Virus record (IMG/VR): IMGVR_UViG_3300045988_140747 | Strand: one strand, 5' to 3' | Source of the DNA: a virus | Length of the DNA: 64,000 nt | In this document: positions 4,188 through 52,359 of the stretch, one piece after another | Layout: each line of letters starts with the position of its first letter | Position numbering within the stretch: the first letter of the stretch is position 1 | Program-made: the position numbers and the translations under genes | Notes under the pieces: model-generated | Told to the model about the DNA's origin: nothing | What the model saw: the letters and a program-made list of their open reading frames with translations, nothing else | Databases searched by the model: none

Positions 4188-4224
4188 TTTTTTTGAATAC
4201 TACCCCAAAAAGGAGAGATGGATA

Positions 4225-4470: not shown

Positions 4471-4507
4471 GCAAATAATAAGTCAAACGTGAAGGAAGGT
4501 TTTCATT

Positions 4508-5145: not shown

Positions 5146-5374
5146 TCGTTGCGGCAAGGAGATTCCAAAGGTTACAGAGATGAACATTTTGGGCCATGAA
5201 GTAGAGAGATATCGGCTTGGGAAGCTAGATTTTGGATTTCCATTCCACGACATCGACCTTAGCCGGTATGGCACAGACGTTTGCGAGAAATGCGCTTTTG
5301 AAGTAAGCATATTGATGCGCGACCAGAAAGCTAAAATGATTGGAGGCAACGGCTATGGAACACTCAAGGAATGA
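5120..5374 (+). CDS. Small zinc-ribbon-like protein (84 aa)
   Basis: CDRCGKEI ... CEKCAF gives two CxxC pairs. Confidence 0.45.
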   Translation: MRIEKIFCDRCGKEIPKVTEMNILGHEVERYRLGKLDFGFPFHDIDLSRYGTDVCEKCAFEVSILMRDQKAKMIGGNGYGTLKE

Positions 5375-5837: not shown

Positions 5838-6076
5838 AGTATTTTGTTGAAGCGAACGTTAAGTACCCTTACATGAGCACGACTGCCACGTTTATCATTG
5901 ATTGCGATTGTACGATCGAATCTGTTGATGGCATCACGTGGCTTGAATCTCAAGCAAAAAGGGCTTTCGATGAAGAGCCATCCAACCGCAAAGACTACGA
6001 TGAGTTCATTATTATCTCGTTTTCTCCGCTTGACACACCTACGGGCCCCATTTGCGGAGGTGCAGCTTTGTTATGA
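5834..6076 (+). CDS. Hypothetical protein (80 aa)
   Basis: ATGA overlap with the upstream gene. Confidence 0.4.
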   Translation: MKYFVEANVKYPYMSTTATFIIDCDCTIESVDGITWLESQAKRAFDEEPSNRKDYDEFIIISFSPLDTPTGPICGGAALL

Positions 6077-6258
6077 AAAAGAAAGAAAAAACATGCGATC
6101 CTGGCACCTGCGACTATTGCCAGTACATTGGCGAAGGTGACTTTTTGTGCGACAAATATCTCGAAGTCGTCGTAGAGGACTGGGAACCCACCAAAAACTT
6201 TTTGATGTGTGCCAAGAAAAAACGGAGGATTTCAAATGACTTTTCTGTGCGTCCCTGA
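6073..6258 (+). CDS. Small Cys-rich protein (61 aa)
   Basis: ATGA overlap with the upstream gene; CDPGTCDYC...FLCD. Confidence 0.4.
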   Translation: MKKKEKTCDPGTCDYCQYIGEGDFLCDKYLEVVVEDWEPTKNFLMCAKKKRRISNDFSVRP

Positions 6259-18760: not shown

Positions 18761-20163
18761 ATGCCACAGATCCTGAAGCCGCAGGAAGGACCTCAGACAC
18801 GGTTCATGTCTACCCCCGCGAGCATTTGTATCTATGGCGGCTAGGAGCAGCCGGCGGAGGGAAAAGCTTTGGATTGCTCATGTCTGCCCTTCGGTACAAG
18901 AACGTGCCCGGGTTTGGCTGCACCATATTCCGAAAGAACTTCAACCAGATATTTGCACAGGGCGGTCTGTGGGATGAATCCATGCAGATCTACCAAGACG
19001 TCAAGGGAGCTTGTCCCAAGTTCGCTCGAGGGCAATGGTTGTTCTGCAATGACAAAGGTGAGGTTTTATCAAAGGTCACGTTTGCTCATATTGAGAAGGA
19101 TGAGGACGTCCATAAATGGCAAGGCTCTCAGATCTGCGAATTGGGATTTGACGAGCTAACTCATTTTACCGAGAAAACGTTCTTCTATATGCTATCCCGT
19201 AACCGATCTGCCTGTGGTGTTGAGCCATTTGTCAGGGCTACATGCAACCCTGATGCGAATTCATGGGTGGCAAAGTTCATTGAGTGGTGGATCGATCAGG
19301 ATACTGGATACCCAATCCCTGAACGGAGTGGGAAGATTCGATGGTTTATCCGCCGGGATGAAGTGCTCTACTGGGCTAATACCCGGCAAGAGCTCTGGAA
19401 AAGATTCAATCTCACTACAGAAGAGGAGAAAAGTGAGCCAAGGTCTGTCACGTTCATAATGTCTAAGTTGAGCGACAACAAGGAACTTATGAAGGTGAAC
19501 CCGGGCTACCTTGCAAACCTAAAGGCGCTGTCTCAGATCGAGAGAGAGCGCCTTCTTTATGGAAACTGGAAGATCAAGGCCGCTGCTGGTCTCTACTTCA
19601 AGAGATCACAGCTTGGAGAGATTCTCAATAGTGTCCCTGCGGATGTCATCCAGTGGGTAAGATGCTGGGACTTGGCTGCTACGGAAAAGGACGACAAGGG
19701 AGACCCGGCATATACTGCTGGCGTCCTTATGGGAAAGCGGAAGAATGGACGATATGTCATTGCCAACGTTGTCAACAAGCAGATGTCCGCATCTGATGTC
19801 CGAAAGACCATCAAGCTCACGGCACAGTCTGATAGAGCTGCCTATAAGCGAGTCCGAGTTCGATTGCCACAGGATCCCGGACAGGCCGGTAAGGAACAGG
19901 CGGAGTCCTACATAAAGTTCTTGGCCGGCTTTGATGTTACGACTGTGGCAGAAAGCGGAACCAAAGAGGCAAGAGCGGAGCCAATGGCTGCACAATGGCA
20001 GGCTGGAAACTTCGACATTGTATACGGCGAGTGGAATGAAGAGTACCTGCTTCAGCTTGAAAACTTCCCAGATGGAAAGTTCAAGGATATGGTCGATGCT
20101 TCCGCAAATGCTTTTGCAGAGATCGAATCCAGATGCGCATTCAACCTCAGCAACCTGATTTGA
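18761..20163 (+). CDS. Terminase large subunit, apparently split by a frameshift at ~18842
   Basis: RBS plus ATG 18761 gives MPQILKPQEGPQTRFMSTPASICIYGG and then TAG. The -1 frame continues (L)GAAGGGKSFGLL (Walker A), LGFDE (Walker B) and nuclease-domain acidic residues through to 20163. Confidence 0.8.
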
Positions 20164-20189
20164 TTACCATACCGGAAGGAGATATAAGC

Positions 20190-23100
20190 GTGGATAAGAT
20201 GACACAAGAGGATCGCATCAAGCACTATGCGCATCTGATTCAGCGTCAGACTGGCAAGGCTGTGCGACCGTACCGTGCTGACGGATACGTCAACATGGTT
20301 AACCGGTATGGCACATCGAAAGATTCGTCCGAGCAGTACAACTTCGTACCGGATGCGCCGGTTGCTGACGATGTGCTTGAAATGCACTATGAAAACAACG
20401 GCCTGTTTTCCAAAATCATCGATATGCCGGCAGAGGAAGCCATCAAGCACGGCTTTACCATCGAAGACGTAGAGGACGGAAAGCTGGCTGACTTCTACAG
20501 CGAAGCTCTCGACGAACTCAACTGGGAAGAGAACGCCATGACCGCCGTTAAGTGGGCAAGACTGTTCGGCGGCTCCATTGCCATTATGCTTGTGAACGAT
20601 GGTCGTGGGCTCGAGGAACCTCTCGATTGGAAGAACATTCAATCCATTGACGATATCCGAGTGTACGACAGATCGCTCATTAGCCCTGACTACAGTAGCG
20701 TGTTCAACTACGATCCGCAGGATCCATTCCGAGTTCGCGGCAGTCGGCTTGGTATGCCCGAATACTATGATGTCTATAGCAAGTATGGATCATTCCGAGT
20801 ACACGACAGCAGATGCCTTGTTTTCCAAAACGGCGTCCTGCCTGAAAATGCAACTAACTCCATCTACCAGTTTTGGGGAATCCCGGAGTACATCAGGCTG
20901 AACAAGGCCATCCGGGATGCGGACATTGCACACCGCAGCGCACCCAAGTTGCTGGAACGGTCTGTGCAGCCCATCTATAAGATGAAGGATCTCGCGGCTG
21001 AGTTGGCTACAGAACAGGGCGAAGACCGCATTCTCAAACGTCTGCAGGTTATCGACACTGCACGAGGAATCCTCAACAGCCTTGTCATCGATGCCGATGG
21101 CGAAGACTATGACTTCAAGACGTTCCAGTACAACGGTATCACTGACGTTATCAGTGCATCCTGCAATATGCTCGCTGCCCTGTCCAATATTCCACAGATC
21201 ATTCTGTTTGGGCAGACCATCAGCGGAATGAGCAGCACTGATGACACCAGCATGGAGAACTACTACAACTACGTTGAGCGCATTCAGAAAAGGATGCTGC
21301 GGAGTAATCTCCGATATCTACTGTCTGTTGTTTTTCAAGCCGGCCTTGCAACCGGAGAGGTTGATGAAGTCCCAAAGCTGAAGGTTCAGTTCAATCCTCT
21401 GTGGTCTGTCAGCGATTCCGACCAAGCAACTCTGGATCAGCAGAAGGCCCAGACCGAGCAGATCAAGGCGCAGACTGCCCAGATCTATGTCGGTATGGAA
21501 GCCATTGATCCCAGCGAGGTTCGTTCCAAGCTTGCAGATAGCGATGACTTTGATGTCGAGAATATGCTTGATGAGTATACTGAAGAGGAACTCGAAGCTG
21601 GAATGCCAAGCAATGATGAGAGCCAAGAGCAAACGCCTGATGATGGACAGCCTGCTACTCCTGATTCTCAACCTACTGGAAATGATGAAAAAGCCGGACC
21701 TGGTCAGCTCCTGAACGAAAAGACTCTCTCTGCTGTTGGAAACAATGCAAAAGATCCTGCCACCATGGAGACTAAGGTTAGCTCCGATCCTCATGAAAAC
21801 AAGGAAGGCACTGAAGGTGATGCCCCTGCATCCGCCCCTGCTGCGACGAAAAAGCCTTCCGACATGGACCCTGAAGAAAAGGCCAAAGCTGCACAATCGC
21901 GCCAAAACAAGGCAAAAGACCGGGAGGACTCACTTCGTACCGATGACAACAATTCTCACTCCGAAGATCAAAAAGGCTCGGTGGGCGTTATTGTGGTCAA
22001 TGGGGGCAGAGTCCTGAATGGTACTCGGCACAACGATTTTGGCTACGGCCTTGTCTGTGGCCCCGGCGGTCACATTGAAGAAGGTGAAACTCCGGAACAG
22101 GCTGCATTCCGAGAGACCAAAGAAGAATTCGGTATTACGCCCAAAAGCCTTATGTGCCTTGGACAAGGGCCTAAAGAAAAAGATACCGGCCTGAAGCCGT
22201 ACCTGTTCCTGTGCACCGAATACTACGGCACTCCGAACTGCGAAGATCTCGAGATGACCGGCGCCAAGTTCAGTACCATTGAGGAATTGAACGAAAAGGC
22301 CGAATCCTTGTTCGGCCCGTTCGCAGACGGCCTGAACATCCTGATGGACTGCCTTGAAACCGGCATCTTCTATACAGACCCAGCGGAAGGCGTAACTGGC
22401 GAGAAACTGAATTCTCATCTGGAAAAGGCTATGAATGCCGATGGAGGTCAAGGATCTGGCAATTTTGGACACGAAGGAAGGCCAGGAAAAGTAGGAGGAA
22501 GCGCCGAGTCGCACAACTTTGGAGGGCTCAAAAACAGCGAGCTTTCATCTAAGATGAATGGCGTGTTCGATGATGCAAAGATAGGAACTCGCTTTTCCGT
22601 AAAGATGAACGGCGTTGCCGGAAAAGATGATTATGAAATCTATAAAGTTTCAGATGGATTCTACGTTCGGAGCAAAAAAGGCGGAAACGATATTGTCAAA
22701 TCAGTTGACAAGCTCGTCGAGAATTGCGGTGTATACGTCACAAATCTGACCTCTGACAAGGTCATGTATAAGGAAGCCAACATTGAAGTTGGTGAACCCG
22801 AAACAGAAGAAGCACAAAGTTTTACTAGAGCATACGAATCTTGCAGAAAGGAAAGAGAGCGACTTGCATCTGGGAATTATAAAATCACTGAAGTTGATGA
22901 TGCTACCGCAAAAAAGTATGCTGACACTTTGAACAAAGCAAGCAAGGCAAAAATCGCAAAACTTGCTATTGATGACCCACAGTTCAAGGCTGTTGTTGAT
23001 AACATTTCTGCGTATACACAGGGAGAATATGTATATCAGCGAAAAGCGACTGAAAAATTCATCAGCAACGGATATGACCCATCTAACGATGCAATCCTCG

Positions 23101-26100
23101 GAGATCGACTTACCGATTCTTTGTATTTATGCAAAGACATGTACAAGGGACAAAATCTTTCCGTTTCCAGTGCAAGTGTAACGGAAGGCATGGCGAACTT
23201 GACAAAGGCTGTGAATTGCTCCGATCCGTTTGACGGAGAGCTGTACCGAGTTGCTCAGGACAGAAGCCTGATGAAAACTGCAGACTCTGGAAACCAGGGA
23301 GTATACACTCCGCCAAAACCCGGAGAAACAATATCCATAGTTGCTCCTACTTCGTTCTCAAAGGACAAAGCGGCTATTGATAAGATTGCCAAAGATAAGT
23401 CCGGTGATATCATCTATTACACTGTTCAACCGGGTGCTCATGCCGTAGATGTATCAAAGCTGTCACCGTATAAGCAAGCTGAACTCCTTACCTGCGGAGA
23501 ATATGAGGTTGTCAGTGTTGATTCCAAGCCTCAGAGAGTTGTTATGACTCAGATCGATCGTTTCACAAGTGAAACAATCGATTCGCTGAAGGCCAACAGA
23601 GGGGCAACAGTTGACGACGGTTTTGTTAAATTTCCAATCCTTGAAACTCATGTGACTCTTCGCCAGAAAGAACCTATTCACATGGATTCTTGCGATGATA
23701 GCATCCACAGATACAGACCCGACGATTTTTCCGAACGGATGGTCTATGATGACGAGATTGATCTCGATGGTGGCCCAGGGTCTGGGAACTATGGGCACGA
23801 GGGCGTTCCGGGGCAAGTGGGCGGAAGCGCCCCTAGCACAAGCGGTCCGATTTCCAAAAGTAGCTTTCAGAAGGGCTCTGGTCACTTTGAAGTAACTGGT
23901 GACGTGAAAGATATGTATCTCACAAAGCCGGCAAGAACCAGAATTGAAGGGGCTATTAAAACGGTGAAAACCGCTAATGACCTCAAGAAATATCTTGAAA
24001 ATCAAGGAATCAAGCTTGAAACGTCTTATGAACCACTCAAGAAAGCGATGGATAGAGAGATCCCGTCCATCAAGGAGCAGGCTGATTATGTGATTGCCGC
24101 TATTGAGCAGTACAAGGATCTCGGTGGGCTTAAAGCGCTTAAAGCGGTTCACATCTATGACCATGATATTGATGCACAGGCGCAGTACAGCTATCGCGCA
24201 AAAGGGGAAGGTGATGTTCCAGACGAGGGACATTTGTATATCAGCTACATGGCTAATGGAGAGCAAATTATGCATGAGTTTGCTCACGCCTATGCTGACT
24301 CCACAAAGCCTGATGGAATGGATGTTGTCGAATGGTCAGCGAAGCTCAACCAAGAAGCAGGCCTTTCGAAAAACGTAAAATCATACTTCGGCGCGGACAG
24401 CGATGCTAAAGAAGCTGAGCGTTTTGCCAATGCGATTGGGTACGCAATTGCGGATGGAGATGGACCGGATGGCCGACTTGCATTTGCTGCAAATGTTGCG
24501 AATATCGTAAGAAATTCCAATGGATCGTCCGCAGGAATGTCCGGCGGAAACCTTGCATTTAGAAGCATGATTCCGAAAGACAGCTACTTCAACTCTCCAT
24601 CCTACAAGAAGGCTGTTGAAGCCTACCGCGGAGCCATCAGAAAGCATGACGATGCATGGAAGAAATATAGCGACCTCAAGGAAGATCTCAAAGCAGAGTC
24701 CGCTCCGAAGCCTGAATCTGAATGGGATGATAACGACATCTTCGAAGATCTCATTGGCCATCGTCCCATGACCTACACAGAAAAAGGCAAGAAGATCAAG
24801 TCTGAGATGGACAAAGCCTTCAAGGATTCACAGGAATATGACCATGAGCAGACCGAGACTGGCGACAAGCTTCGCGAGATCAAGAAAAAAGAGCATGACA
24901 AGCAGGTGAAGGGCATCCATTTCCAACCGCCTGCTGATGCCTCCTCCGATGATTATGAGGGCTTTACCACTAAGACCACCGGAACGTCCGCCTATGATGA
25001 CTACATCAACGGAGAAAGGAACGGAGGCCGAATTGCAGAGATGTCCCCGGCGGAATATCTTCAAAGATGCGCCTATCAGGTCTTTGAAGATGCTACCATT
25101 GAGTCCACTCTGGCTGCTATCGATGAGTCCAACGTTAAGAAGTATGCCGATATGATGAAGAATGGCACAAAGTTTGACATGCCGTATCTCAATTTCATGT
25201 CTGGTCAGCAGGAAGGACGGCATCGAGCCGCTGCTGCCATGCAAGCTGGTATCGATAAGATCCCTGTGCTTGTGGTCGGAGAAAGGTTTGCCAAGTATGA
25301 CGGAGGAAAAGGCTCTGGCAACTGGGGCCATGAAGGCCGAAAAGGGAAGCTCGGTGGATCGGCCCCCGGCGGAGGCGTGCACAACCGGATTTCCGAAGAG
25401 GGCGGATCCTACACCTCATTCTCAAAGAAGCAGAAGAAACTTGCCACAACGCACTTTGCCGGCAAGGGGGAATTTCACAATCTCCCGGACAAGACTAAGA
25501 TTGTTGCCGATCTTGTGTTTGGACCGTACTCTATGGTCTATAACGCCAAGCATGGCATGTTCATCGGCGAAGACGGTGCCGAAATGAACCCGGATGATGT
25601 GACAGACGCTTGCGACAAAGACACTCCTGTTCGAGTGTTCATTCCGAATGAGGCGAGCACGAACTACAACAAGCTCAAGCAGTCCTTTGATGTTTCCCCG
25701 TCCAGAATGGCTGAAGCAAAAGCCTATTCACAGCCAAAGCAAGCCGACAAAGACCTCCGAAAGAAAACCGGAGAGGTGTGGAAAACGCTTACTGATGGTC
25801 AGAAAAAGTCACTTTATGATTATACCGGCGGCTTTTTTATGGACATCAACCACTCCCTGAGAAGTGGTCATGGAACTGTGCAGAACCAGTCCAAGGCCTC
25901 TGACATCACGACCGCCATAGCTAAGAGCAAAACTCAAGAGGATATGTGGCTGTATCGAGGAGTTGGCTTGGAGGCTGTTCCTAAGATGTTTGGTATTGAC
26001 TGGGGAAAAATACAGAAGAATGACATTGGTTCTATTGTTGGAATGTCCGGCTCTGACGACGGCTTTATGTCGTGCGGTACAACTGCTGGCACTGGATATG

Positions 26101-26369
26101 GAGACGTAACCGATGTCAACATGAAGATTTTCGTTCCGAAGGGGTCTGAGGCTCTATACGCAGAGCCGTTCTCAAAGTATGGAAGCAACCCGGATGCCAA
26201 GAACTGGAACGGCGAAAGCGATCAGACCTATTTTTCCTCCGAAATGGAGACTATCTTGCAAAGAGGGTCTCATTTCCAATGCACAAAAGCCTACTACGAT
26301 GAGGACAAAAAGAAATACAGTATCGAAGTGGCTGTCACCGGACAAGAATACAAGGAGCTCAATTGGTGA
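20190..26369 (+). CDS. Portal protein (DUF1073-type) fused to a polyvalent effector array: Nudix, ART-like, zincin, ParB-like, C-terminal ADP-ribosyltransferase
   Basis: A single ORF is open 20133-26369, with a likely GTG start at 20190 after GGAAGGAG. It carries the Nudix box GGHIEEGETPEQAAFRETKEEFG, HEFAH, QQEGRHRAAAA, and the ART triad LYRG / FMSCGTT / SEMETILQRG. Confidence 0.75.
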   Translation: MDKMTQEDRIKHYAHLIQRQTGKAVRPYRADGYVNMVNRYGTSKDSSEQYNFVPDAPVADDVLEMHYENNGLFSKIIDMPAEEAIKHGFTIEDVEDGKLADFYSEALDELNWEENAMTAVKWARLFGGSIAIMLVNDGRGLEEPLDWKNIQSIDDIRVYDRSLISPDYSSVFNYDPQDPFRVRGSRLGMPEYYDVYSKYGSFRVHDSRCLVFQNGVLPENATNSIYQFWGIPEYIRLNKAIRDADIAHRSAPKLLERSVQPIYKMKDLAAELATEQGEDRILKRLQVIDTARGILNSLVIDADGEDYDFKTFQYNGITDVISASCNMLAALSNIPQIILFGQTISGMSSTDDTSMENYYNYVERIQKRMLRSNLRYLLSVVFQAGLATGEVDEVPKLKVQFNPLWSVSDSDQATLDQQKAQTEQIKAQTAQIYVGMEAIDPSEVRSKLADSDDFDVENMLDEYTEEELEAGMPSNDESQEQTPDDGQPATPDSQPTGNDEKAGPGQLLNEKTLSAVGNNAKDPATMETKVSSDPHENKEGTEGDAPASAPAATKKPSDMDPEEKAKAAQSRQNKAKDREDSLRTDDNNSHSEDQKGSVGVIVVNGGRVLNGTRHNDFGYGLVCGPGGHIEEGETPEQAAFRETKEEFGITPKSLMCLGQGPKEKDTGLKPYLFLCTEYYGTPNCEDLEMTGAKFSTIEELNEKAESLFGPFADGLNILMDCLETGIFYTDPAEGVTGEKLNSHLEKAMNADGGQGSGNFGHEGRPGKVGGSAESHNFGGLKNSELSSKMNGVFDDAKIGTRFSVKMNGVAGKDDYEIYKVSDGFYVRSKKGGNDIVKSVDKLVENCGVYVTNLTSDKVMYKEANIEVGEPETEEAQSFTRAYESCRKERERLASGNYKITEVDDATAKKYADTLNKASKAKIAKLAIDDPQFKAVVDNISAYTQGEYVYQRKATEKFISNGYDPSNDAILGDRLTDSLYLCKDMYKGQNLSVSSASVTEGMANLTKAVNCSDPFDGELYRVAQDRSLMKTADSGNQGVYTPPKPGETISIVAPTSFSKDKAAIDKIAKDKSGDIIYYTVQPGAHAVDVSKLSPYKQAELLTCGEYEVVSVDSKPQRVVMTQIDRFTSETIDSLKANRGATVDDGFVKFPILETHVTLRQKEPIHMDSCDDSIHRYRPDDFSERMVYDDEIDLDGGPGSGNYGHEGVPGQVGGSAPSTSGPISKSSFQKGSGHFEVTGDVKDMYLTKPARTRIEGAIKTVKTANDLKKYLENQGIKLETSYEPLKKAMDREIPSIKEQADYVIAAIEQYKDLGGLKALKAVHIYDHDIDAQAQYSYRAKGEGDVPDEGHLYISYMANGEQIMHEFAHAYADSTKPDGMDVVEWSAKLNQEAGLSKNVKSYFGADSDAKEAERFANAIGYAIADGDGPDGRLAFAANVANIVRNSNGSSAGMSGGNLAFRSMIPKDSYFNSPSYKKAVEAYRGAIRKHDDAWKKYSDLKEDLKAESAPKPESEWDDNDIFEDLIGHRPMTYTEKGKKIKSEMDKAFKDSQEYDHEQTETGDKLREIKKKEHDKQVKGIHFQPPADASSDDYEGFTTKTTGTSAYDDYINGERNGGRIAEMSPAEYLQRCAYQVFEDATIESTLAAIDESNVKKYADMMKNGTKFDMPYLNFMSGQQEGRHRAAAAMQAGIDKIPVLVVGERFAKYDGGKGSGNWGHEGRKGKLGGSAPGGGVHNRISEEGGSYTSFSKKQKKLATTHFAGKGEFHNLPDKTKIVADLVFGPYSMVYNAKHGMFIGEDGAEMNPDDVTDACDKDTPVRVFIPNEASTNYNKLKQSFDVSPSRMAEAKAYSQPKQADKDLRKKTGEVWKTLTDGQKKSLYDYTGGFFMDINHSLRSGHGTVQNQSKASDITTAIAKSKTQEDMWLYRGVGLEAVPKMFGIDWGKIQKNDIGSIVGMSGSDDGFMSCGTTAGTGYGDVTDVNMKIFVPKGSEALYAEPFSKYGSNPDAKNWNGESDQTYFSSEMETILQRGSHFQCTKAYYDEDKKKYSIEVAVTGQEYKELNW

Positions 26370-42571: not shown

Positions 42572-44063
42572 AGGCTTTGTCATGCGCCGTTTGGACGAAA
42601 TCTATGATACTGCCTGCAAAAGGTTCAAAACAGAAGTTGGAATAGACCCGTCCGAGAATCCTCAGAGCTTTATGAATGTGCTCTTCACCATCTTTTCTGA
42701 TGAGCCTTCAATGCTTTGGGAGATATTCGCAGCCGGATATCAAAACCTTTTTCCTAATACTGCCGAAGGGATTGCGCTTGACAACTGTATGCAGCTTGGC
42801 GGAGTCAGCCGTATTGGACAGTCAAAAACAAAATACACTCTTGCCTGCACAGGGCGAGAAGGAACCACTATTCCCGTTGGCGCTATCGTTCAGACAAGCT
42901 CTTTTCCTCAAAGGCAGTTCCAAGCATCAGAAGTCTCTCAGATTTCAAGTGTAAATTGGAATGTCCTTGATATCGCTCCAATTGAGAGCATTTCTGGAGA
43001 CATTACTTTCACATTTGGCGTTGTGCGAAGCTCAACATCTGGCGAGGTTGGAGCCTACGACGAGTCAATATCTGTTACTAAAGATCTTTCGGTGTCCTCT
43101 TATGACGATGCCTTCAGTCAGATTTTTAGTGTGCTCCAAAATTTTAGCGATCTGAAAAAATACGGAATCTCCGTTTCAAAGATCGCTGATGATAGTGGAG
43201 GATCCGTTATCCGGTTCAAGTCCTCTGGTTCTTCTGATAGCTTTTCCGCCACGCTCTGCCGCTACATAACGGTGGTCTCGGTCACAAGCAATATTGCCTT
43301 TGAGAGCGTCGATTATGGAAGCGTCGTTTTGGCAAACGGAACCATAACAGATATCGTTACTACAGTAGATGGATGGAGCTCTTGCACCAATTGCATCGCT
43401 CCGATAAAGGGAAGACTTGTTCAGACTGATGCTGAAGCAAGATCCAGCTACACAAATCGAGTTGCCATGCGCGGAACCGGAACGGTTCTTAGCATCGCTT
43501 CTCTGCTGTACAACGATGTTGATGGGGTCACATTTTCCACTGGATACCAAAACGATGGTGATGAACCCGATTCTGCCGGAAGACCGCCTCATAGCATTGA
43601 AATGATCGTTCAGGGCGGAAGCGACGATGACGTTGCAAAAGTAATCTGGGAAAACAAGTCTGCTGGTATTCGGGCGTATGGATCTCATTATGCCTACGCT
43701 GTTGATTCCAACGGCCAAAAACAGTATGTGGAATTTACTCGCGTTCTGGATGTCTACTTGCTTGTGTCTGTTAAGATCACAAGTTCTGATGGACTGGATG
43801 ATGATTATGTCTCCAGAATTCAGACCCTTCTCCTTGATGAGCAGCTTCATACGGGTCAGGTGATCCGACTGCAAAAATTCATCAGGCCAATTCTCGAATC
43901 TGTTTCTGGAGTTGATTTTGTCGAAATCAGAGGGATGCTCAGTAGAACCCCTGACATTTCTGATGTGTCTGATGATGAGCTGTTGAACGGAGTTGTTCCC
44001 GTCAAAATCAATCAGCAACCGATTCTGACTCCCAAATGCATTAGGGTGGTGAAGACAACTTGA
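42546..44063 (+). CDS. Baseplate J-like protein
   Basis: 505 aa; assigned by position and size. Confidence 0.55.
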   Translation: MPDLGITPKGFVMRRLDEIYDTACKRFKTEVGIDPSENPQSFMNVLFTIFSDEPSMLWEIFAAGYQNLFPNTAEGIALDNCMQLGGVSRIGQSKTKYTLACTGREGTTIPVGAIVQTSSFPQRQFQASEVSQISSVNWNVLDIAPIESISGDITFTFGVVRSSTSGEVGAYDESISVTKDLSVSSYDDAFSQIFSVLQNFSDLKKYGISVSKIADDSGGSVIRFKSSGSSDSFSATLCRYITVVSVTSNIAFESVDYGSVVLANGTITDIVTTVDGWSSCTNCIAPIKGRLVQTDAEARSSYTNRVAMRGTGTVLSIASLLYNDVDGVTFSTGYQNDGDEPDSAGRPPHSIEMIVQGGSDDDVAKVIWENKSAGIRAYGSHYAYAVDSNGQKQYVEFTRVLDVYLLVSVKITSSDGLDDDYVSRIQTLLLDEQLHTGQVIRLQKFIRPILESVSGVDFVEIRGMLSRTPDISDVSDDELLNGVVPVKINQQPILTPKCIRVVKTT

Positions 44064-44299
44064 TATCTGCTTACAACAATATGGTTGAAAAGCTCCCACT
44101 GCAATTTCGTCTGGAAGCTTGTGACGAATCTTATTTCGGAGACTTTATTTGTGATACGAAAGACGATCTTAAAAGCTTGCCAACCGATTGTGCAATGGGA
44201 AGCATCGCCAGAGTTATCGAGCCGCCATCTATTTATAGAAAAAGTGCATCTGGCACTTGGGTTCTGCAAAAAAGCGTCGGGGAGGATGAAGAAATTTGA
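44060..44299 (+). CDS. Hypothetical tail protein (79 aa)
   Basis: TTG start. The motif DLKSLPTDCAMGSIARV is shared with the N-terminus of the 49177 fibre protein. Confidence 0.4.
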   Translation: MISAYNNMVEKLPLQFRLEACDESYFGDFICDTKDDLKSLPTDCAMGSIARVIEPPSIYRKSASGTWVLQKSVGEDEEI

Positions 44300-44895: not shown

Positions 44896-45930
44896 GTGGC
44901 CGAAACACGATCCGGATTAGTTGTGGATGACTATTCAAAAGTTGCCTTTTCTGTAGATGGCACCAAACAGGAGCTATCTATTGACGAATGGAAGGCCGGC
45001 TGGGCTACCATTGTTGGCGGCATTAACGGAAAGCCGACAAGCCAGCAGTTCAACATGGTTACATACATTCTGTCAAGCTTGCTGAATCAAGCCATTTCAG
45101 ATCTTTCAACTGTTAAAAGCACCGCCAATGACGCACTGCCAAAGACCGAATTCACAGCGGATCAAATTGCAAAGATGCTTGCAGAACTGGATCTGATGAA
45201 TGGATGCAACGCCGATAAGCTTGACGGAAAACATGGCGATGAATATGCGTCTGCAGACCATAAGCATTCTGCAGACGACATTGAAGTCGGAACATTGCCC
45301 ATCGAACGAGGTGGAACATATGCCACTACCGCTCCTGAGGCGTGTGCAAATCTTGGCGCAATGCAGACAGCCGGCGGTACGTTCATTGGTGATGTTTACT
45401 TTGCAAACGGAACTGCGCATTATGTTTTGTCAACAGGCGACGCGCATCTTAAATCTTTGACGGTATCTGGTGATATCAATGCAAAGCGAGTCTACGATGC
45501 AGTTTATAACGACTATGCTGAGTTGATGCCGCGTGGCGAACAAACAGAACCGGGCGACATCGTTGCTCTCGATACCAGCAGTCAGACGGAACGATACATC
45601 AAGGCAACGAATTTGTCTGACCGTATCGCTGGAGTCCACACTGATGAGTTTGCAATGCTTATCGGCGGCAATAAAGTTAGAGAAGGGCAGGATTTCCTTG
45701 CGGAAAACCTGCCCTCTTTTATTCCTGTTTCTCTTGCTGGCCGTGTGCATACCAAAGTGATCGGGCCTGTTCATACGGGTGACTACATTGTTTTGTCTGA
45801 AACGCCAGGAATCGGACGTGCCGTTGGTTCGTGTGAATCCTGCCCGACCGATAAAATTGTTGGCTACGCTTGTGAAGGCGATGACCGAACAGATCTTAGA
45901 CTGGTAAAAGTCAGAGTAGGGGGCAAGTGA
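44896..45930 (+). CDS. Tail fibre protein
   Basis: GTG follows AAAGGAGGA. KLDGKHGDEYASADHKHSADDI...GGT is a fibre motif, and the C-terminal domain resembles the Peptidase_G2/IMC type. Confidence 0.6.
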   Translation: MAETRSGLVVDDYSKVAFSVDGTKQELSIDEWKAGWATIVGGINGKPTSQQFNMVTYILSSLLNQAISDLSTVKSTANDALPKTEFTADQIAKMLAELDLMNGCNADKLDGKHGDEYASADHKHSADDIEVGTLPIERGGTYATTAPEACANLGAMQTAGGTFIGDVYFANGTAHYVLSTGDAHLKSLTVSGDINAKRVYDAVYNDYAELMPRGEQTEPGDIVALDTSSQTERYIKATNLSDRIAGVHTDEFAMLIGGNKVREGQDFLAENLPSFIPVSLAGRVHTKVIGPVHTGDYIVLSETPGIGRAVGSCESCPTDKIVGYACEGDDRTDLRLVKVRVGGK

Positions 45931-46916
45931 TGATAAAAAAGGATTCACGGTGCTATGCTTCTGACTTTTCTGAAATAAAGAAAGCACTTGATGCTGAGCT
46001 TGGCCGTCGCGGAAAAGCTGAGGGAACAGCGCGTGGGCAGAGCGTTGGCAGCATGGCTTCATACAAACAAGAGTTCTCAAATGCTATTGCAGTAGGAGAA
46101 ACTATCAGAAATGAACACATTCAGAAGCTCACTCAGCCTTTGAGCGCCATTACGGGTTCATCCATTGCACCTGAAAATGGAAACAAGGTTACTGCCGATG
46201 TACTGGCTCAAGCTGCATCGATGCTCAGTGAACTCAGTTCGGTCGAGGAGACATCCTCATCAAGCGGATGCGCAGGAGCGTGCTCCGGCCTTTGCGCAAC
46301 TGGTTGCTATTCCTCGTGTTCTGGATGTACCGGTAGCTGCACGGGTGGTTGTTTAGACTCTTGCGTTGCGACTTGCGCAGATGATTGCGTTGGTGGCTGC
46401 AAGACAACATGCTCTGGATTGTGCACCGGGACATGCACTGGAACGTGCACGCAAGCATGTGCAAATACTTGCGGAGGAACATGTACCGGCACTTGCATGG
46501 GCACCTGCGTAAATTCCTGCACTGGCAACTGCGTTGGAAAATGTACAGGTACATGCACAGCAGCCTGTGCCGATAGCTGCACAAGGAACTGTAAGACAAC
46601 CTGTAGTGGCGGATGCTCCGGTTCATGTGATGGTTGTTCAAGTTCCTGCGAGGGAAGCTGCAGCACCAATTGTGCTGATAGCTGCGATAACAATTGCACG
46701 ACTGGGTGCAAATCTTATTGTGCAAATAGCTGTCAGGATAGTTGCGCTGGAACGGGTTGCCTTGCTAACTGCGAAAGCGGCTGCTCGAACTCTTGCAGAG
46801 GCGACTGTAATTCGCACTGCGGTTCACAGTGCACTAGCGGTTGCGATTCAAGCTGCGATGGATGTTCTGGATCGTGTTCCGGTGGCTGCACAAGCTGCTC
46901 TGGATTCTTATTTTAA
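45927..46916 (+). CDS. Cys-x3-repeat (CXXX-repeat) protein, 329 aa
   Basis: A 113-aa non-repetitive N-terminus is followed by about 54 Cys with an almost invariant 4-residue period (GCAGACSGLCATGC...CSGSCSGGCTSC). ATGA overlap with the upstream fibre gene. Confidence 0.75.
   Translation: MMIKKDSRCYASDFSEIKKALDAELGRRGKAEGTARGQSVGSMASYKQEFSNAIAVGETIRNEHIQKLTQPLSAITGSSIAPENGNKVTADVLAQAASMLSELSSVEETSSSSGCAGACSGLCATGCYSSCSGCTGSCTGGCLDSCVATCADDCVGGCKTTCSGLCTGTCTGTCTQACANTCGGTCTGTCMGTCVNSCTGNCVGKCTGTCTAACADSCTRNCKTTCSGGCSGSCDGCSSSCEGSCSTNCADSCDNNCTTGCKSYCANSCQDSCAGTGCLANCESGCSNSCRGDCNSHCGSQCTSGCDSSCDGCSGSCSGGCTSCSGFLF
46269..46913 (+). repeat. Imperfect 12-nt periodic coding repeat (TGY NNN NNN NNN)n
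   Basis: Encodes the Cys-x3 array and generates spurious long ORFs in other frames and on the minus strand. Confidence 0.85.
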
Positions 46917-46934
46917 AAAATACAGGAGGAAAAG

Positions 46935-47519
46935 ATGGACGCTACTATTCATTATGCAAGTAACGGCGACTCAGATGCAGATGCATCGTATCTCAGAAAT
47001 CTGCCGATCATTAAGCTCCTTCAAAAGGCCACCATCGATGTCGATGACTGGAGTGTGCTCTTGTCTGCCGCTCCTAACGGCGAAGATAAGCTTTTCTGGT
47101 GTCTTGGATATGCTGGCGCTCTTTGTGCTATCGACGCAACAGACTTTGATGACTGGTTTATCTACTGCCTTACAGTCGTGGACTCCGCTTTGCAAGCCTG
47201 CAAAATCGAGAGTGCTTCTGATGAGCGCCGAAACCTGCTTGCTCTTGGGCTTGCATCGAGAACTTTTAATTTTGCAGCAAATCCTGTCACCAAAGATCTG
47301 AAATGTAAGGACGCATTACTCGGCGCTGGCGATTACCGTTGTTCTGAAGATGCTGATATCTTTGCCATGTGGTTTGCTCTTCGCATCTTGACTGAATATC
47401 TGAGGCTTGACTTCAACAGCAATCTGCGGGCTTTGACAAATGCCATGGTGTCCATGAACAAAATTCGGGAACGGTACAGCCAGATTGCAGACAGGCTTCC
47501 GAAAATGGATGCCTGCTGA
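46935..47519 (+). CDS. Hypothetical protein (194 aa) within the CXXX/rSAM cassette
   Basis: AGGAGGA RBS; no motif recognised. Confidence 0.45.
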   Translation: MDATIHYASNGDSDADASYLRNLPIIKLLQKATIDVDDWSVLLSAAPNGEDKLFWCLGYAGALCAIDATDFDDWFIYCLTVVDSALQACKIESASDERRNLLALGLASRTFNFAANPVTKDLKCKDALLGAGDYRCSEDADIFAMWFALRILTEYLRLDFNSNLRALTNAMVSMNKIRERYSQIADRLPKMDAC

Positions 47520-47539
47520 GATCTGAAAAGGGGAAGAGT

Positions 47540-47842
47540 ATGAAAATTGTAGAGTTGACTACCATCGAGAGCGAAACTGTAGAGCGTGCTTTTTATGAGG
47601 CACAGTCGTATGAGTCGCTCATGGCGGTTCTCAGCCGACAGCTGAATGCCAATGCGAATCCTGAAACTGCCAAGATCCTTATGCATTATGCAGAGCTGTG
47701 CAGAGCTGCACAAATGAAGCTTAAAATGGCACAGGATACCGTCGTTTCGCGGTATATCGACCTGAACGATCCGCGATATGTCCGATACCAATTCGATTTC
47801 GGCAGGGAGGAGGTCCATCTCCTTGAAAAACAAGAGATTTGA
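47540..47842 (+). CDS. Small helical protein (100 aa) immediately upstream of and overlapping the rSAM gene
   Basis: GGGGAAGAG RBS. Its position resembles the accessory proteins of rSAM peptide-maturation cassettes. Confidence 0.45.
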   Translation: MKIVELTTIESETVERAFYEAQSYESLMAVLSRQLNANANPETAKILMHYAELCRAAQMKLKMAQDTVVSRYIDLNDPRYVRYQFDFGREEVHLLEKQEI

Positions 47843-49172
47843 GGACTACGGAAATACAGTCCAAAGACTGTACTGCCGAGACCTTCCTGAAACCAGCAGT
47901 GCATGCCGCAATATCACATTTCAGGTTACGAACGGCTGCAATCTTCGGTGTTCTTATTGCTATGAGCATCACAAGGGATCGGAGCATATGAGCGTCGAGA
48001 CCGGCAGAAAAATTGTTGATTACTTGCTTGACCAGTACGAACGCAACGATTCGGACTTCATCAACTGGAATACACGGGCTGTCGTTCTCGACTTTATCGG
48101 CGGAGAACCGCTGCTTGAGGCCACTTTGATTGAACAGATCTGTGATTACTGGTTTTCAGAATGCTTCCGTCGCGACATTCCACTGGCTCCGTTCACAAGG
48201 ATCTCTTTTGCTACGAATGGTCAACTCTGGTTTAGCTCTGAAGCGCAGCATTTGATTGAAAAGTATCACGACCTCATGTCAATCACAGTTAGCATTGACG
48301 GTGTTCAGGATCTTCACGATATGTACCGCCTCGATGAACACGGTAACGGGAGCTTTTCAAAAGCATGGGTCGCATTTCAAGATGGAAAGCGCCGCTTTGG
48401 ATGGGCCAACAGCAAAATGACTTTTGTTCCCGGGTCATTCCCGTACATTTCCGATAGTCTCAAGATGATGTTAGATGAAGGATGCTCTGATGTCGCTTGT
48501 AACTACGCATATGAACCTGTGTATACGCCTGCAGATGGACGGTCTCTGTATGAGCAGCTGAAGATTGTGTCCGACTACATTGTAGACAACAAACTGGATG
48601 TTGTTGTCACGATTCTCGATAGTCTGCTCGGCGGAAAAGCTAAAGACGACAAGAATTTCTGCGGTGGCACAGGCGCTATGTTATCGTTTGCGCCGGATGG
48701 GAGCGCCTATCCATGTATTCGATATGCTCCTATTAGCATTGGTGTGGAAAAAGCCAAGAAAGTCCGCTTTGGAAGCGTCTACGATGGACTATATGTCACT
48801 GATGAGCAAAAACGTGTAAAAGCGGATCTTGACGCAATTACTCGTACAACACAGTCTCCAAAAGAATGCTTGGAATGCCCTGTGTCTGCAGGGTGCGGCT
48901 GGTGTTCTGGCATGAATTATGAGGTGTTCGGTACAGCCAATAAGCGTACCACCTCTATTTGCTGGGCACACAAGGCCCGTGTCCTTGCAAGTGCCTATTA
49001 TTACAATCACCGGTATGTTGAGATCGGCGATTGCCTGCCAATCAAGGTCGAACTGCCTGAAACCGATGCGCTGAAGATCCTCTCCAAGCAAGAGTATTCT
49101 AAGTTTCAGAACTTAGAAAAAAAGGCGCTGCTGAAATTTGCTGATGCAGCAGGAATTAGAAGAAAGGAGTGA
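47778..49172 (+). CDS. Radical SAM / SPASM-domain maturase (anSME-like)
   Basis: CNLRCSYCYE (Cx3Cx2C), GGEPLL, and C-terminal auxiliary-cluster cysteines CGGTGAMLSFAPDGSAYPC ... CLECPVSAGCGWCSG ... C. The start may instead be TTG 47823, after GGGAGGAGG. Confidence 0.8.
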   Translation: MSDTNSISAGRRSISLKNKRFEDYGNTVQRLYCRDLPETSSACRNITFQVTNGCNLRCSYCYEHHKGSEHMSVETGRKIVDYLLDQYERNDSDFINWNTRAVVLDFIGGEPLLEATLIEQICDYWFSECFRRDIPLAPFTRISFATNGQLWFSSEAQHLIEKYHDLMSITVSIDGVQDLHDMYRLDEHGNGSFSKAWVAFQDGKRRFGWANSKMTFVPGSFPYISDSLKMMLDEGCSDVACNYAYEPVYTPADGRSLYEQLKIVSDYIVDNKLDVVVTILDSLLGGKAKDDKNFCGGTGAMLSFAPDGSAYPCIRYAPISIGVEKAKKVRFGSVYDGLYVTDEQKRVKADLDAITRTTQSPKECLECPVSAGCGWCSGMNYEVFGTANKRTTSICWAHKARVLASAYYYNHRYVEIGDCLPIKVELPETDALKILSKQEYSKFQNLEKKALLKFADAAGIRRKE

Positions 49173-49176
49173 AAAA

Positions 49177-50781
49177 ATGGCTGTTTTAATTGCAGAAACC
49201 AAGCTCGAAACAATTGATACAGCATGGTACCACTTCTACATTGACAAAGTTGCCGATATAGAGTCACTTCCCACTAGTTGTTCGATTGGCATTGCCTTTT
49301 CTGTAAAAAAATATGCTCGGCCAACCAGCGTTGCCTACTGCATAGAAGACGCGCATGTATATATGCTCGACAGCCATGACAAGTGGCGTCCCATGTACGG
49401 CTTCTCTGATGATGTTCTTGACGCCCTTGATGTCAAAACAAGTGATTTCTTCAAGATCTGCTCCGAGACAAAGAACTATAGGGATGAAGCAGTTTCAAAT
49501 GCTAATTCCTCCGCTAAAAGTGCAGCTGCTGCTCTCGCAAGTCAAAATGCCGCCAAGAACAGCGAGACAAAATCTGCTGCAAGTGAAGCCGTAGCAAAAA
49601 GAAGTGAGCAAAGTGCAGCAGCTGCAGCTGCAGCTGCAAGCAGCAGTAAAACTTCTGCCGCTGCAAGTGAGGCAACAGTCAAAGCATCTGCAACTGCTGC
49701 CGCTGAATCTCAGGCTAAAGCCGCCGAATCAGAGAAAAATGCAAAGGCTAGCGAGACTTTAGCTGGTACAAGCGCCACAAACGCATCCACGTCCGCAAAA
49801 AATGCAGCCTCTTCCGCCACTACAGCAACTGACGCCGCTACGACAGCTTCCGAAAAGGCTACTGCCGCTAGCTCTAGTGCCACCAATGCAGCTGCAAGCG
49901 CAAAAACTGCAGAAAAAAGCGAAGCAAACGCTAAAATTTATGCTGAGAAAGCTCAACTTATCGGCGACAGTTACAAAGGCTGGTACCAAACAGAAAAAGA
50001 ACTGGCCGCAGATCTGACAGAAGCAAAAAACGGTGACTGGGCGATCGTCGGCGAGTCTGACACCATGTGGGTGTGGGATGGCGACACCGGCGCGTGGGTC
50101 AATACCCGCAAAGAGGTGGACCTGTCGGACTACATGACGCAGGACCAGATCATGAAGCTGCTTGAGCAGTACATGCCACTTCGCCCCGCCACCGCAACCA
50201 CACTGGGCGGAATTAAGGTCGGCAGTGGACTTTCTGTGACCGAAGATGGAATGCTGAGCGCCGATGCTCAGGAATACACCCTCCCCGCCGCCACCGCAAC
50301 CACGCTGGGCGGTGTGAAGGTTGGCAGCGGTCTGACGGTCGATGCGGACGGAACACTTTCTGCGGACAGCGCTTTGGCTGCCTACCCCGTTGGCAGTATT
50401 TTTCAAACAGTCAGCACTACCAGTCCCGCCGAACTGTTCGGCGGTACATGGCAGGAGATTGCATTTAACCGCGTGCTGATGGGTGCTGGCACAGGCTACA
50501 CAGCGGGAAGCACGGTGGAGGCCGGACTGCCGAACATCACGGGCAGCTTAATAGAAACAAACGCAGAATCCTCCCCATTCCGTGGTTCAAAAGCGTCTTT
50601 GAAATCATCGGGAGCTTTAAAATTCGTAGAAATCAATACTTCTTGGGGTGGCTACAGTGGTATGTCAGGTTCGACGTATGATGTTTACTTTGATGCTTCC
50701 CGCTCGAACTCAATCTACGGTCGCAGCTATACCGTGCAGCCCGCCGCCTACTATGTGCACATCTGGAAGCGCGTGGCATGA
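49177..50781 (+). CDS. Tail fibre protein with Ala/Ser-rich coiled coil
   Basis: ATG follows AAAGGAG. It has a long SA(A)K/E coiled coil and a duplicated PA(A)TATTLGG(I/V)KVGSGL(S/T)V unit. Confidence 0.6.
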   Translation: MAVLIAETKLETIDTAWYHFYIDKVADIESLPTSCSIGIAFSVKKYARPTSVAYCIEDAHVYMLDSHDKWRPMYGFSDDVLDALDVKTSDFFKICSETKNYRDEAVSNANSSAKSAAAALASQNAAKNSETKSAASEAVAKRSEQSAAAAAAAASSSKTSAAASEATVKASATAAAESQAKAAESEKNAKASETLAGTSATNASTSAKNAASSATTATDAATTASEKATAASSSATNAAASAKTAEKSEANAKIYAEKAQLIGDSYKGWYQTEKELAADLTEAKNGDWAIVGESDTMWVWDGDTGAWVNTRKEVDLSDYMTQDQIMKLLEQYMPLRPATATTLGGIKVGSGLSVTEDGMLSADAQEYTLPAATATTLGGVKVGSGLTVDADGTLSADSALAAYPVGSIFQTVSTTSPAELFGGTWQEIAFNRVLMGAGTGYTAGSTVEAGLPNITGSLIETNAESSPFRGSKASLKSSGALKFVEINTSWGGYSGMSGSTYDVYFDASRSNSIYGRSYTVQPAAYYVHIWKRVA

Positions 50782-51936: not shown

Positions 51937-52359
51937 TTGAATAGATTAAAAGAGATTTTGAAGTGTCTTGTTCTATTTTTAATTGGCGGAACTCTTTACT
52001 GCTGCCTCGAAGTTCTATGGCGCGGATATACCCACTGGACGATGGCTGTTGTGGGCGGTTGCTGCTTTATTGTTATCGGTGGATTAAATAACTATATTCC
52101 TTGGGAAATGAAAATCTGGAAGCAAGGAGTTGTTGGCGCGGTATTCGTTACCGCGATGGAACTTGTTGTTGGCGTTCCTCTCAACCTGTTCATGGGCTTA
52201 AATATCTGGGATTACTCTCAGGTGCCTTTTAACTTTCTTGGACAGATTTGTTTGCCGTTTACTGTTCTTTGGTTCTTTCTGTCAATTCTGTGCATTTTTG
52301 TTGATGACTGGCTACGTCATATTTTGTTCAAAGAAGAAAAGCCTAAATATTATTGGTAA
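51937..52359 (+). CDS. Polytopic membrane protein (PF06541-like 'putative ABC-transporter type IV' family)
   Basis: Four hydrophobic segments; LEVLWRGYTHWTM...NIWDYS. An AT-rich gene between GC-richer fibre genes. TTG start. Confidence 0.45.
   Translation: MNRLKEILKCLVLFLIGGTLYCCLEVLWRGYTHWTMAVVGGCCFIVIGGLNNYIPWEMKIWKQGVVGAVFVTAMELVVGVPLNLFMGLNIWDYSQVPFNFLGQICLPFTVLWFFLSILCIFVDDWLRHILFKEEKPKYYW

Follow-up and report, generated by a model that had tools for sequence, protein, structure and literature searches.

The locus described here raises the question of why a phage should keep, between two of its tail-fibre genes, a protein with dozens of regularly spaced cysteines together with a radical S-adenosylmethionine (SAM) enzyme. 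It occupies positions 44896-49172 on the + strand of IMGVR_UViG_3300045988_140747, a virus record of which 64,000 nt were analysed, this whole stretch being referred to below as the window. Five adjoining genes form a unit there, which consists of a fibre gene (fibre A) with a predicted Peptidase_G2 intramolecular chaperone (IMC) domain, the Cys-repeat gene, two small open reading frames (orf194 and orf100), and the gene of the radical SAM enzyme (rSAM), and this cassette sits in the late tail operon of a Faecalibacterium-type myovirus. The favored interpretation, which is given an even chance of being correct, is that the cassette is a phage-adapted CXXX-repeat radical-SAM peptide-maturation system that has been built into the tail operon. 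To our knowledge, the CXXX-repeat system (the TIGR04114 target, the TIGR04115 rSAM, the TIGR04116 partner of ~90 amino acids, and the TIGR04119 second maturase, which is of the SPASM type) was defined in 2011 by gene neighbourhood, and its chemistry is uncharacterised.

The Cys-repeat open reading frame (ORF) extends from 45927 to 46916, and encodes 329 amino acids when counted from its GTG codon. The start is more likely the ATG at 45930, which overlaps the TGA (45928-45930) of the 344-amino-acid fibre gene by one base, and the two genes appear to be translationally coupled. The original prediction, made from the letters of the sequence, had described an ORF overlapping the fibre stop, with about 54 cysteines at a four-residue spacing, and this description was confirmed. 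Residues 115-324 (210 residues) contain 54 cysteines, and 48 of the 53 gaps between them are of four residues, with four gaps of three and one of five. Between the cysteines stand mostly G, S, T, A, D, and N, with T/S/A predominating in the first position after the cysteine, G in the second, and S/T/G/N in the third. When the 210 residues of the repeat were shuffled in 200,000 permutations, the number of four-residue gaps averaged 5.6 and reached a maximum of 19, against the 48 observed. Tandem Repeats Finder recovered no real DNA tandem repeat in the Cys region, which indicates that the periodicity is maintained at the level of the protein.

The reading frame was evaluated by comparison with the equal-length ortholog of locus L034, in which the repeat codons differ by 92 synonymous and 46 non-synonymous changes, and 25 Cys codons are swapped between TGC and TGT with not a single cysteine lost. 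Four of the five alternative frames have a non-synonymous excess in this comparison (about 126-141 vs 7-20), while the reverse frame with common wobble positions has 85 synonymous and 61 non-synonymous differences. The Cys-repeat frame is thus under purifying selection, and is the real coding frame. Three overlapping ORFs of 134-255 amino acids, at 46234-46725 (-), 46307-46711 (-), and 46534-47301 (+), were rejected as genes, given that their substitution patterns mark them as by-products of the composition of the repeat. Family membership was assessed with NCBIfam/TIGRFAMs, Pfam, and PHROG profiles, read against the curated cutoffs (350 bits for TIGR04115, 340 for PapB NF047865, 349 for the anaerobic sulfatase-maturing enzyme, anSME, TIGR03942, 20 for TIGR04114, and 50 for TIGR04117). 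The TIGR04114 target-repeat model scores 28.8 bits on the Cys-repeat protein, which is above its cutoff, while TIGR04117 reaches 38 bits, below its own. The protein also matches phrog_6085, an unannotated PHROG, and PF27846 ('tSAM_targ_Cxxx_rpt') is flagged on its homologs.

The architecture of the protein is constant over 17 lineages, and consists of an N-terminal domain (N-domain) of ~105-120 amino acids, followed by a conserved junction and by CXXX units that vary in number, usually with a short aromatic tail at the end. The N-domain has the conserved motifs D(F/Y)..LK.....E..RR, GS...Y, and P....I..EH.K, and the repeat opens with the junction GC...C(S/T)GLC...CY..C. The number of repeat cysteines varies from 13 to 64 between lineages, and the length of the product from 190 to 380 amino acids; this range led to the rejection of a fixed Cys number (54-55 in three lineages) as a length ruler. 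No signal peptide was found on the protein. An exhaustive phmmer search with the N-domain alone, run against 1.84 billion representatives, returned 45 hits, and all the genuine ones combine the N-domain with a CXXX repeat, so that this domain is dedicated to the Cys-repeat proteins. Four long 'hits' (408-2,246 amino acids), which would have suggested a generic fibre module, were spurious, and correspond to eukaryote-like tandem repeats of a short GEHIQRLLQP-type motif. A tblastn search with the Cys-repeat protein recovered no match in the deposited phages, probably due to the low-complexity filter.

Many public gene calls of the Cys-repeat protein (P0009, P0018, P0019, P0025, P0029, P0022) are chimeric, cut short, or have a frameshift in front of the repeat or where it begins. 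In L021/L050, around positions 5001-6245, the L021 contig has the repeat divided over two frames. These broken calls could reflect either assembly or sequencing errors in Cys/Gly-rich DNA, or real frameshift variants.

The original prediction also included a 464-amino-acid enzyme with the CNLRCSYC cluster and a SPASM-type Cys region, and mentioned a 'CXXX-repeat target' family of radical SAM enzymes. Both points were borne out, given that the ORF contains the CNLRCSYC radical-SAM cluster and seven conserved SPASM cysteines, and that the family exists as TIGR04115, which aligns with the enzyme over profile positions 2-359 of 359 at 316.7 bits, below its cutoff. The gene is likely to start at the TTG at 47823, so that 20 nt of overlap with orf100 remain. 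TIGR04115 leads all other families by about 180 bits, and is followed by PapB (134.3 bits, against the 340 of that family), CcpM (83), SCIFF (75), and QhpD (72), all of which are Cys-thioether formers or maturases of Cys-rich peptides. The enzyme also matches phrog_1802, and at E < 1e-20 its relatives fall into 1,267 clusters, some of which comprise thousands of sequences.

The hidden Markov model (HMM) check proposed for 47778-49172 thus assigns the enzyme to the CXXX-repeat/PapB clade, and does not uphold a grouping with the sulfatase maturases. An identity as an anSME was rejected, since TIGR03942 scores only 50.4 bits, and matches only the N-terminal rSAM core, and since CteB, a thioether synthase, is the closest solved structure (E 8e-15), nearer than the anSME in the PDB (E 1e-6). 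No sulfatase was found among the neighbouring genes scanned, a set from which the remaining small ORFs of the window are excluded. The CX3CX2C motif and the seven SPASM cysteines align with the cysteines of the auxiliary clusters of CteB, and ten cysteines (C54, C58, C61, C295, C313, C364, C367, C373, C376, and C395) are invariant in nine enzymes of phage, cellular, and jumbo-phage origin. CteB has an N-terminal recognition (RRE) domain, whereas the alignment begins at CteB residue 93 and the phage enzyme has only ~45 residues before its core, so that it has no fused domain of this type. A TIGR04114-type target gene, which is the gene context expected of TIGR04115, lies 0.9 kb upstream in the same operon, and a Cys-repeat target stands next to the enzyme in 101 of 102 loci. 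The pairing of the rSAM and the Cys-repeat protein as enzyme and substrate is highly probable.

The complete canonical CXXX system is found in L002 (MT837480.1, 6.8 kb, deposited as 'Bacteriophage sp.'), where a target with a twin-arginine translocation (Tat) signal, TIGR04115 (630 bits), TIGR04119 (235 bits), and TIGR04116 (105 bits) stand ahead of TatA and TatC. The record contains no phage genes, and L002 seems to be a piece of bacterial DNA and not a phage. The phage target shares with this system the same G/S/T-rich run of Cys-X-X-X and the conserved start C...C.GLC, and the phage enzyme is nearest to TIGR04115 over the full profile, with a partner of ~100 amino acids that is probably a TIGR04116 homolog. 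Unlike the canonical target, that of the phages has a phage-specific N-domain of ~110 amino acids in place of the Tat signal, has up to 380 amino acids and up to 64 cysteines, and is tied to a tail-fibre gene, while orf194 is an additional, unrelated component. The cellular homolog is exported, whereas no signal peptide, transporter, or leader protease was found in the phage cassette, as covered by the ORF list and the NCBIfam and Pfam scans.

The two ORFs of 194 and 100 amino acids, the second overlapping the rSAM gene, were found as originally described, and neither has a match in Pfam or NCBIfam. The AlphaFold 2 (AF2) model of the cassette-specific orf194 has a predicted local distance difference test (pLDDT) score of 88.5, and is all-alpha, with eight helices. 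No neighbour of this fold was found in the PDB (best E 0.5), and the search of BFVD returned only uncharacterised gut-phage proteins. The hypothesis that orf194 is a degenerate TIGR04119 was discarded (hhalign probability 0.1%), and its apparent disruption in some loci proved to be an artefact, the frame being intact. For orf100, the accessory-model search proposed for 47540-47842 succeeded in part. The TIGR04116 HMM has no direct match on the window protein, and reaches E 0.17 in one ortholog, but the hhalign comparison of the 11-member orf100 family with the true TIGR04116 protein of L002 (104.6 bits) is collinear over the full length, with a probability of 73.6% and E 2.9e-5. It is thus probable that orf100 is a distant homolog of TIGR04116, the CXXX repeat peptide modification system protein.

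The reaction catalysed on the repeat can be approached through the relatives of the enzyme. In the PapB/PapA (freyrasin) ranthipeptide system, PapB modifies the several CX3 motifs that one substrate contains, through a Cys thiolate bound to the auxiliary cluster, with the loss of 2 Da per link (PMC10739248). QhpD, of the QhpD/QhpC system, is a SPASM enzyme that forms Cys thioethers (PMC11002830). PapB is the second-best family of the phage enzyme (134 bits), but it needs an Asp/Glu acceptor (CXXXD/E), whereas the residue at i+4 in the phage repeat is Cys. PapA is, in addition, a short peptide with six motifs, compared with the 54 of the 329-amino-acid phage protein. The substrates of CteB/SCIFF, to which the enzyme is structurally closest, and of QhpD/QhpC have 3-6 cysteines rather than dozens, and neither system is viral, while QhpD provides a precedent for the installation of several Cys thioethers inside a protein subunit, rather than in a small secreted peptide. 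Given that the nearest relatives of known chemistry (PapB, SCIFF/CteB, QhpD) form thioethers, this would be the most likely chemistry on the repeat, and its probability is put at about one half.

A metal- or iron-sulfur/thiolate-binding rod, or some other rSAM reaction (epimerisation, conversion of Cys to formylglycine, dehydro chemistry, or C-C links), would be independent of the role of the protein, and is considered quite improbable. This possibility is raised by the Tat signal of the cellular target, a signal that is typical of cofactor-loaded proteins, and no TIGR04115 chemistry was found characterised in the searchable literature. Most CXXX units also have no carboxylate acceptor, whereas PapB recognises a thiol and a carboxylate (PMC10739248), and the SPASM enzymes catalyse many different reactions (PMC11002830). 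On the other hand, PapB, SCIFF/CteB, and QhpD all join the Cys sulfur to a carbon of a nearby residue (PMC11002830). Seven, and not eight, SPASM cysteines align with the ligands of the auxiliary clusters of CteB. This seven-Cys arrangement leaves an open site for the substrate Cys in CteB, and acceptors of the sactionine type need no carboxylate.

The association of the cassette with the tail fibres is the second main line of evidence. The C-terminus of fibre A is predicted to be a Peptidase_G2-type, self-cleaving IMC domain. The C-terminal domains of all seven orthologs examined match PF11962, and essentially no other family, with a best E of 9.4e-6, while the window's own domain scores 13.7 bits (E 0.042), below the gathering threshold of 25 bits, and a weak hint in the PDB points to a tailspike chaperone domain (E 0.25). 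The D-x-x-E motif of fibre A (NDYAE) presumably corresponds to the autocleavage site of phi29 gp12. Like the phi29 gp12-type tail spikes and fibres, fibre A would end in a PF11962-type domain, but it differs from these appendages in that its IMC subfamily is always followed by the Cys-repeat/rSAM cassette, an association that has not been described for the phi29 type.

A search of viral contigs and reference genomes with the rSAM as the query recovered about 40 loci, in which the order baseplate wedge, gpI-like, fibre A, Cys protein, orf194, orf100, rSAM, and fibre B is kept at 48-95% rSAM identity, and in all of which the C-terminal ~150 residues of fibre A are conserved. The hosts include Faecalibacterium metagenome-assembled genomes (MAGs), the isolate Gemmiger formicilis DFI.6.10 (as a prophage), and an uncultured Clostridia MAG. 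When the fibre IMC domain alone was used as the query, the best 80 of 243 viral relatives were kept, of which 61 had enough downstream sequence, and all 61 of these complete loci have a Cys ORF immediately 3' of the fibre and an rSAM/SPASM gene. About 35 of them, including phages of 116-148 kb, were absent from the rSAM-based scan. Among 50,697 deposited phage records, the IMC fibre type is found in only one, which also carries the cassette, and the phage collection searched contains no cultured relative of the window phage group.

A profile-HMM census found all five parts of the unit in 99 of 102 loci (orf194 in 99, and orf100 in 100), the three exceptions being L039, an unrelated locus of the type that produces peptides made by the ribosome and then modified (RiPPs), and a jumbo phage. 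In L039 the IMC fibre and orf194 are absent, and the cassette still lies between fibre genes. The linkage between fibre genes that the original prediction had proposed is thus sustained, while its count of four genes has to be raised to five with the inclusion of fibre A. Its placing of another tail fibre after the rSAM is supported by the Gp10_C and tail-fibre PHROG matches of fibre B, which starts 4 nt past the rSAM stop. Within the cassette, the starts and stops of the genes overlap or are 4-20 nt apart, and no promoter or terminator was found inside it. The cassette is not a sporadic moron, given that it is conserved, lies in a fibre operon, and is tied to one type of fibre in about 100 loci.

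The exchange of this unit between phages provides further insight into its organization. In comparison with L004, the DNA identity is 59-67% in the baseplate genes, 83% in the N-terminal part of fibre A, and 99% in the IMC domain, with 91-99% in the Cys protein, orf194, and orf100, 95% in the rSAM, and 66% in fibre B. Phages with ~65% identity elsewhere thus exchange the block from the C-terminus of fibre A to the rSAM as a single piece. In comparison with L006, the identity is 94-99% in orf194, orf100, and rSAM, against 63-76% in fibre A and the Cys protein. As L004 shares the whole block and L006 only the last three genes, the unit has two exchangeable sides, a substrate side (the IMC domain and the Cys protein) and a maturase side, with the Cys protein travelling with the fibre. 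Near-identical sets of enzymes serve N-domains that are only ~62% identical, which suggests that the enzymes read the conserved motifs of the N-domain, while the variable remainder of this domain would co-evolve with the fibre.

A fibre-related function of the Cys-repeat protein is reasonably probable, based on the translational coupling, the lack of internal promoters and terminators, the genomic linkage, and the co-inheritance. The presence of the protein in the mature virion is given a probability slightly short of one half. An alternative is a fibre assembly factor or scaffold, which would fold, trimerise, or cap fibre A without being retained in the particle, and is rated as rather unlikely. 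The Cys gene is directly 3' of the fibre gene, and coupled to it, and this slot is typically occupied by a tail-fibre assembly gene, as in the P2-, Mu-, and lambda-like phages. Co-inheritance of the protein is also specific to the IMC domain, and does not extend to the N-terminal and central parts of fibre A, which are variable. Fibre A already has its own intramolecular chaperone, however, and a repeat of 54 cysteines with a three-gene maturation set would be a large investment for a transient helper, while variation of 13-64 cysteines is seen more typically in structures that are exposed and evolvable than in chaperones.

An analogous cluster is found in the Erwinia jumbo phage vB_EamM_Asesino (NC_031107.2, complement 137074-146252, locus L042), in the genes gp185-gp180, with Cys-repeat ORFs at 1097-1480, 1489-1890, and 1934-2140 of the locus, and radical SAM genes at 3058-3963 and 3956-5296. 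As in the window, the Cys-repeat proteins have a common N-region, and directly follow a fibre-like 'virion structural protein'; the motif CGGxCSWxCS is common to the three paralogs. The enzyme gp180 belongs, like that of the window, to the PapB/TIGR04115 clade of SPASM enzymes (130 and 122 bits), but is only ~26% identical to the window rSAM. The Asesino cluster differs from the window cassette in its three short paralogous precursors (68-133 amino acids) with a different leader, in its second, SPASM-less rSAM, and in the absence of homologs of orf194, orf100, or the IMC fibre, and hhalign also ruled out a relationship between orf194 and gp182. The phage records that encode enzymes about 25% identical to the window rSAM number 34 for Erwinia and 22 for Salmonella, and the neighbourhood was inspected in Asesino alone. 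The first Cys ORF of Asesino (127 amino acids, complement of about 144.77-145.16 kb in NC_031107.2) is unannotated in RefSeq, where the minus-strand gp186 is annotated instead.

A number of observations weigh against a phage-adapted maturation system that acts on a fibre component, and some of them favor a RiPP-like product with no structural role, which would simply be carried along by the fibre module, and in which the N-domain would be a long leader. Such a product might be an antimicrobial, metal-active, or redox-active polypeptide, or a factor that manipulates the host, made late in infection and either released at lysis or active inside the cell, and this explanation is rated as unlikely. 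The cellular members of the family are small and exported, as seen in the Tat-signal target beside TatA/TatC in L002. The jumbo-phage cluster, with its three paralogous leader-plus-core precursors, looks like a multi-precursor locus of the kind often found in RiPP systems, and its Cys proteins are annotated as hypothetical rather than virion proteins. The N-domain is confined to the CXXX repeats, as a leader might be; no similarity to structural or attachment modules was found in the searches made for it, and it is never fused to any other C-terminal domain, so that it could equally be a long leader. The structure prediction proposed for the repeat was of no use, given that the AF2 run on the whole Cys-repeat protein (with a 13-sequence alignment) gave a pLDDT of 38.5, and no usable model of either the repeat or the N-domain. 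In L043/L044, the intact five-gene unit adjoins thymidylate synthase and dihydrofolate reductase genes, rather than a recognisable tail module.

Other points bear on the chemistry, the family, and the virion. Only 13 of the 210 repeat residues are acidic (11 Asp and 2 Glu, in irregular positions), so that links of the PapB type, from Cys to a carboxylate residue, cannot explain most of the 54 cysteines. The TIGR04115 scores of seven fibre-linked orthologs (295-313 bits) and of the window enzyme (317 bits) are all below 350, compared with 376 in the outlier phage L039 and 630 in the cellular enzyme of L002, and for this reason the fibre-linked phage enzymes form a distinct sister or sub-clade of TIGR04115, rather than strict members. 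The TIGR04119 second maturase of L002 has no counterpart in the cassette. The Peptidase_G2 IMC domain is normally cleaved off, which means that co-inheritance alone does not place the Cys protein on the mature fibre, and that linkage to this domain also fits an assembly role. The proposed virion membership of the Cys-repeat protein derives from its genomic linkage. The RiPP-like explanation, in turn, is opposed by the absence of a leader protease, transporter, immunity gene, or signal peptide from the cassette, by the coupling of the Cys gene to the fibre gene inside a late structural operon, with no promoter of its own, and by the linkage to a single fibre C-terminal domain in 61 of 61 loci. 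The Cys protein also co-varies with the fibre and not with the enzymes, and products of 190-380 amino acids far exceed typical RiPPs.

If the cassette is the phage-adapted maturation system favored here, the process may be envisaged as follows. The orf100 protein, perhaps with orf194, would bind to the GC...CSGLC...CY..C junction and to the conserved portion of the N-domain, and so present the repeat to the rSAM, which would then move processively along it. The thiolate of each Cys would dock on the open auxiliary cluster, a hydrogen atom would be taken from a neighbouring residue, and an intramolecular thioether would form, with the loss of 2 Da per link. The Gly/Ser-rich chain would thus be converted into a ladder of small rings, that is, a stiff rod resistant to proteases and to reduction. 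The rod would act with the preceding fibre, most likely as a fibre-associated virion component held through the N-domain, a partnership that is suggested by the co-inheritance of the Cys protein with the fibre C-terminal domain, and not with the enzymes. That a poly-thioether rod of ~200 residues is a genuine part of the tail-fibre apparatus in the abundant Faecalibacterium/Gemmiger gut phages is a more tentative proposal, considered possible rather than probable.

The window belongs to a contractile-tailed phage, with the terminase, portal, protease, major head protein, sheath, tape measure, baseplate hub, wedge, and several fibre genes following one another in this order on the + strand. The features of the cassette and of its downstream boundary are listed in Table 1.

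Table 1. Positions and supporting evidence of the cassette features in the window.
Feature	Position (nt)	Strand	Evidence or remarks
Fibre A, 344 aa	44896-45930	+	Weak tail-fibre PHROG match; faint resemblance to pyocin/tail-fibre PDB entries
Fibre A, predicted IMC domain, aa ~192-344	~45469-45927	+	Peptidase_G2-type; YN-DYAE at aa ~204-209
N-domain of the Cys-repeat protein, ~113 aa	45930-46268	+	Motifs conserved over 17 lineages
CXXX repeat region, 54 Cys, aa 115-324, then SGFLF tail and stop	46269-46916	+	Periodicity; TIGR04114; selection
orf194, all-alpha (predicted)	46935-47519	+	AF2 model; 99/102 loci; strong AGGAGG ribosome-binding site
orf100, candidate substrate-recognition partner of the rSAM	47540-47842	+	hhalign to TIGR04116; 100/102 loci
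rSAM/SPASM maturase (putative), CXXX-repeat-target clade	47823-49172, 449 aa (maximal ORF from ATG 47778, 464 aa)	+	TIGR04115, PapB, and CteB comparisons
Fibre B, downstream boundary of the cassette	49177-50781 (maximal start 49138)	+	Gp10_C and Phage_head_fibr Pfam matches; tail-fibre PHROGs

Other genes of the window have features of their own. A 79-amino-acid ORF at 44060-44299 (+), between the baseplate wedge and gpI-like genes, resembles the N-terminus of fibre B (49177-49500; 28% over 68 amino acids, pairwise E 5e-7), with the common motif D(L/I)(K/E)SLPT.C..G, and the shared domain may be a baseplate-docking module. The ORF at 20133-26369 (+), of 2,078 amino acids, contains a portal protein in its first ~590 residues (phrog_15528, E 7e-182), a NUDIX-like region (residues ~582-725), and a C-terminal ADP-ribosyltransferase-like domain (residues 1853-2075, phrog_16625, E 2.6e-19), and may be a giant portal or ejected-protein fusion. 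A multi-pass membrane protein of ~120-140 amino acids is found among the fibre genes, at 51937-52359 (+) in the window and at 8440-8799 in L045, a phage contig of 150 kb in which its gene is directly 3' of the rSAM. The L045 protein is PF06541 CmpB-like, and 53% identical to the window copy. This protein was rejected as a part of the cassette, given its absence from the flanks of most of the other cassette loci.

The original prediction knew of no characterised phage example of such a system, and the searchable literature yielded no publication on CXXX or Cys-repeat rSAM systems of phages, although public virome records already give some related phage enzymes the automatic label 'CXXX-repeat target family [Caudoviricetes sp.]'. 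The new elements presented here are that the unit has five genes and is linked to a fibre, that it includes a dedicated N-domain and orf194, that TIGR04119 has been lost, and that the exchange is modular, together with the analogous, undescribed cluster in the cultured Erwinia/Salmonella jumbo phages. Whatever their role, the phage Cys-repeat proteins far exceed in length all other natural substrates of the CXXX-repeat rSAM family, and they make its chemistry directly testable, with experimental entry points in the prophage of the cultured Gemmiger formicilis DFI.6.10 (NZ_JANGCG010000001, around 402.7-418.1 kb) and in the cultured Erwinia/Salmonella jumbo phages. A processive enzyme that installs dozens of staples in an encoded chain would also be of interest for biotechnology.

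The system is common in the phages of Faecalibacterium, a keystone human commensal. If a poly-thioether rod is part of the fibre apparatus, it would be the first case of a virion protein matured covalently in the manner of a RiPP, and a novel type of protein fibre, which would owe its rigidity to dozens of intramolecular cross-links installed by an enzyme, and not to a fold. If the product is indeed carried on the particle, cross-linking by radical SAM enzymes would represent a new principle of virion maturation, and may explain how fibres survive in the protease-rich, reducing environment of the gut.

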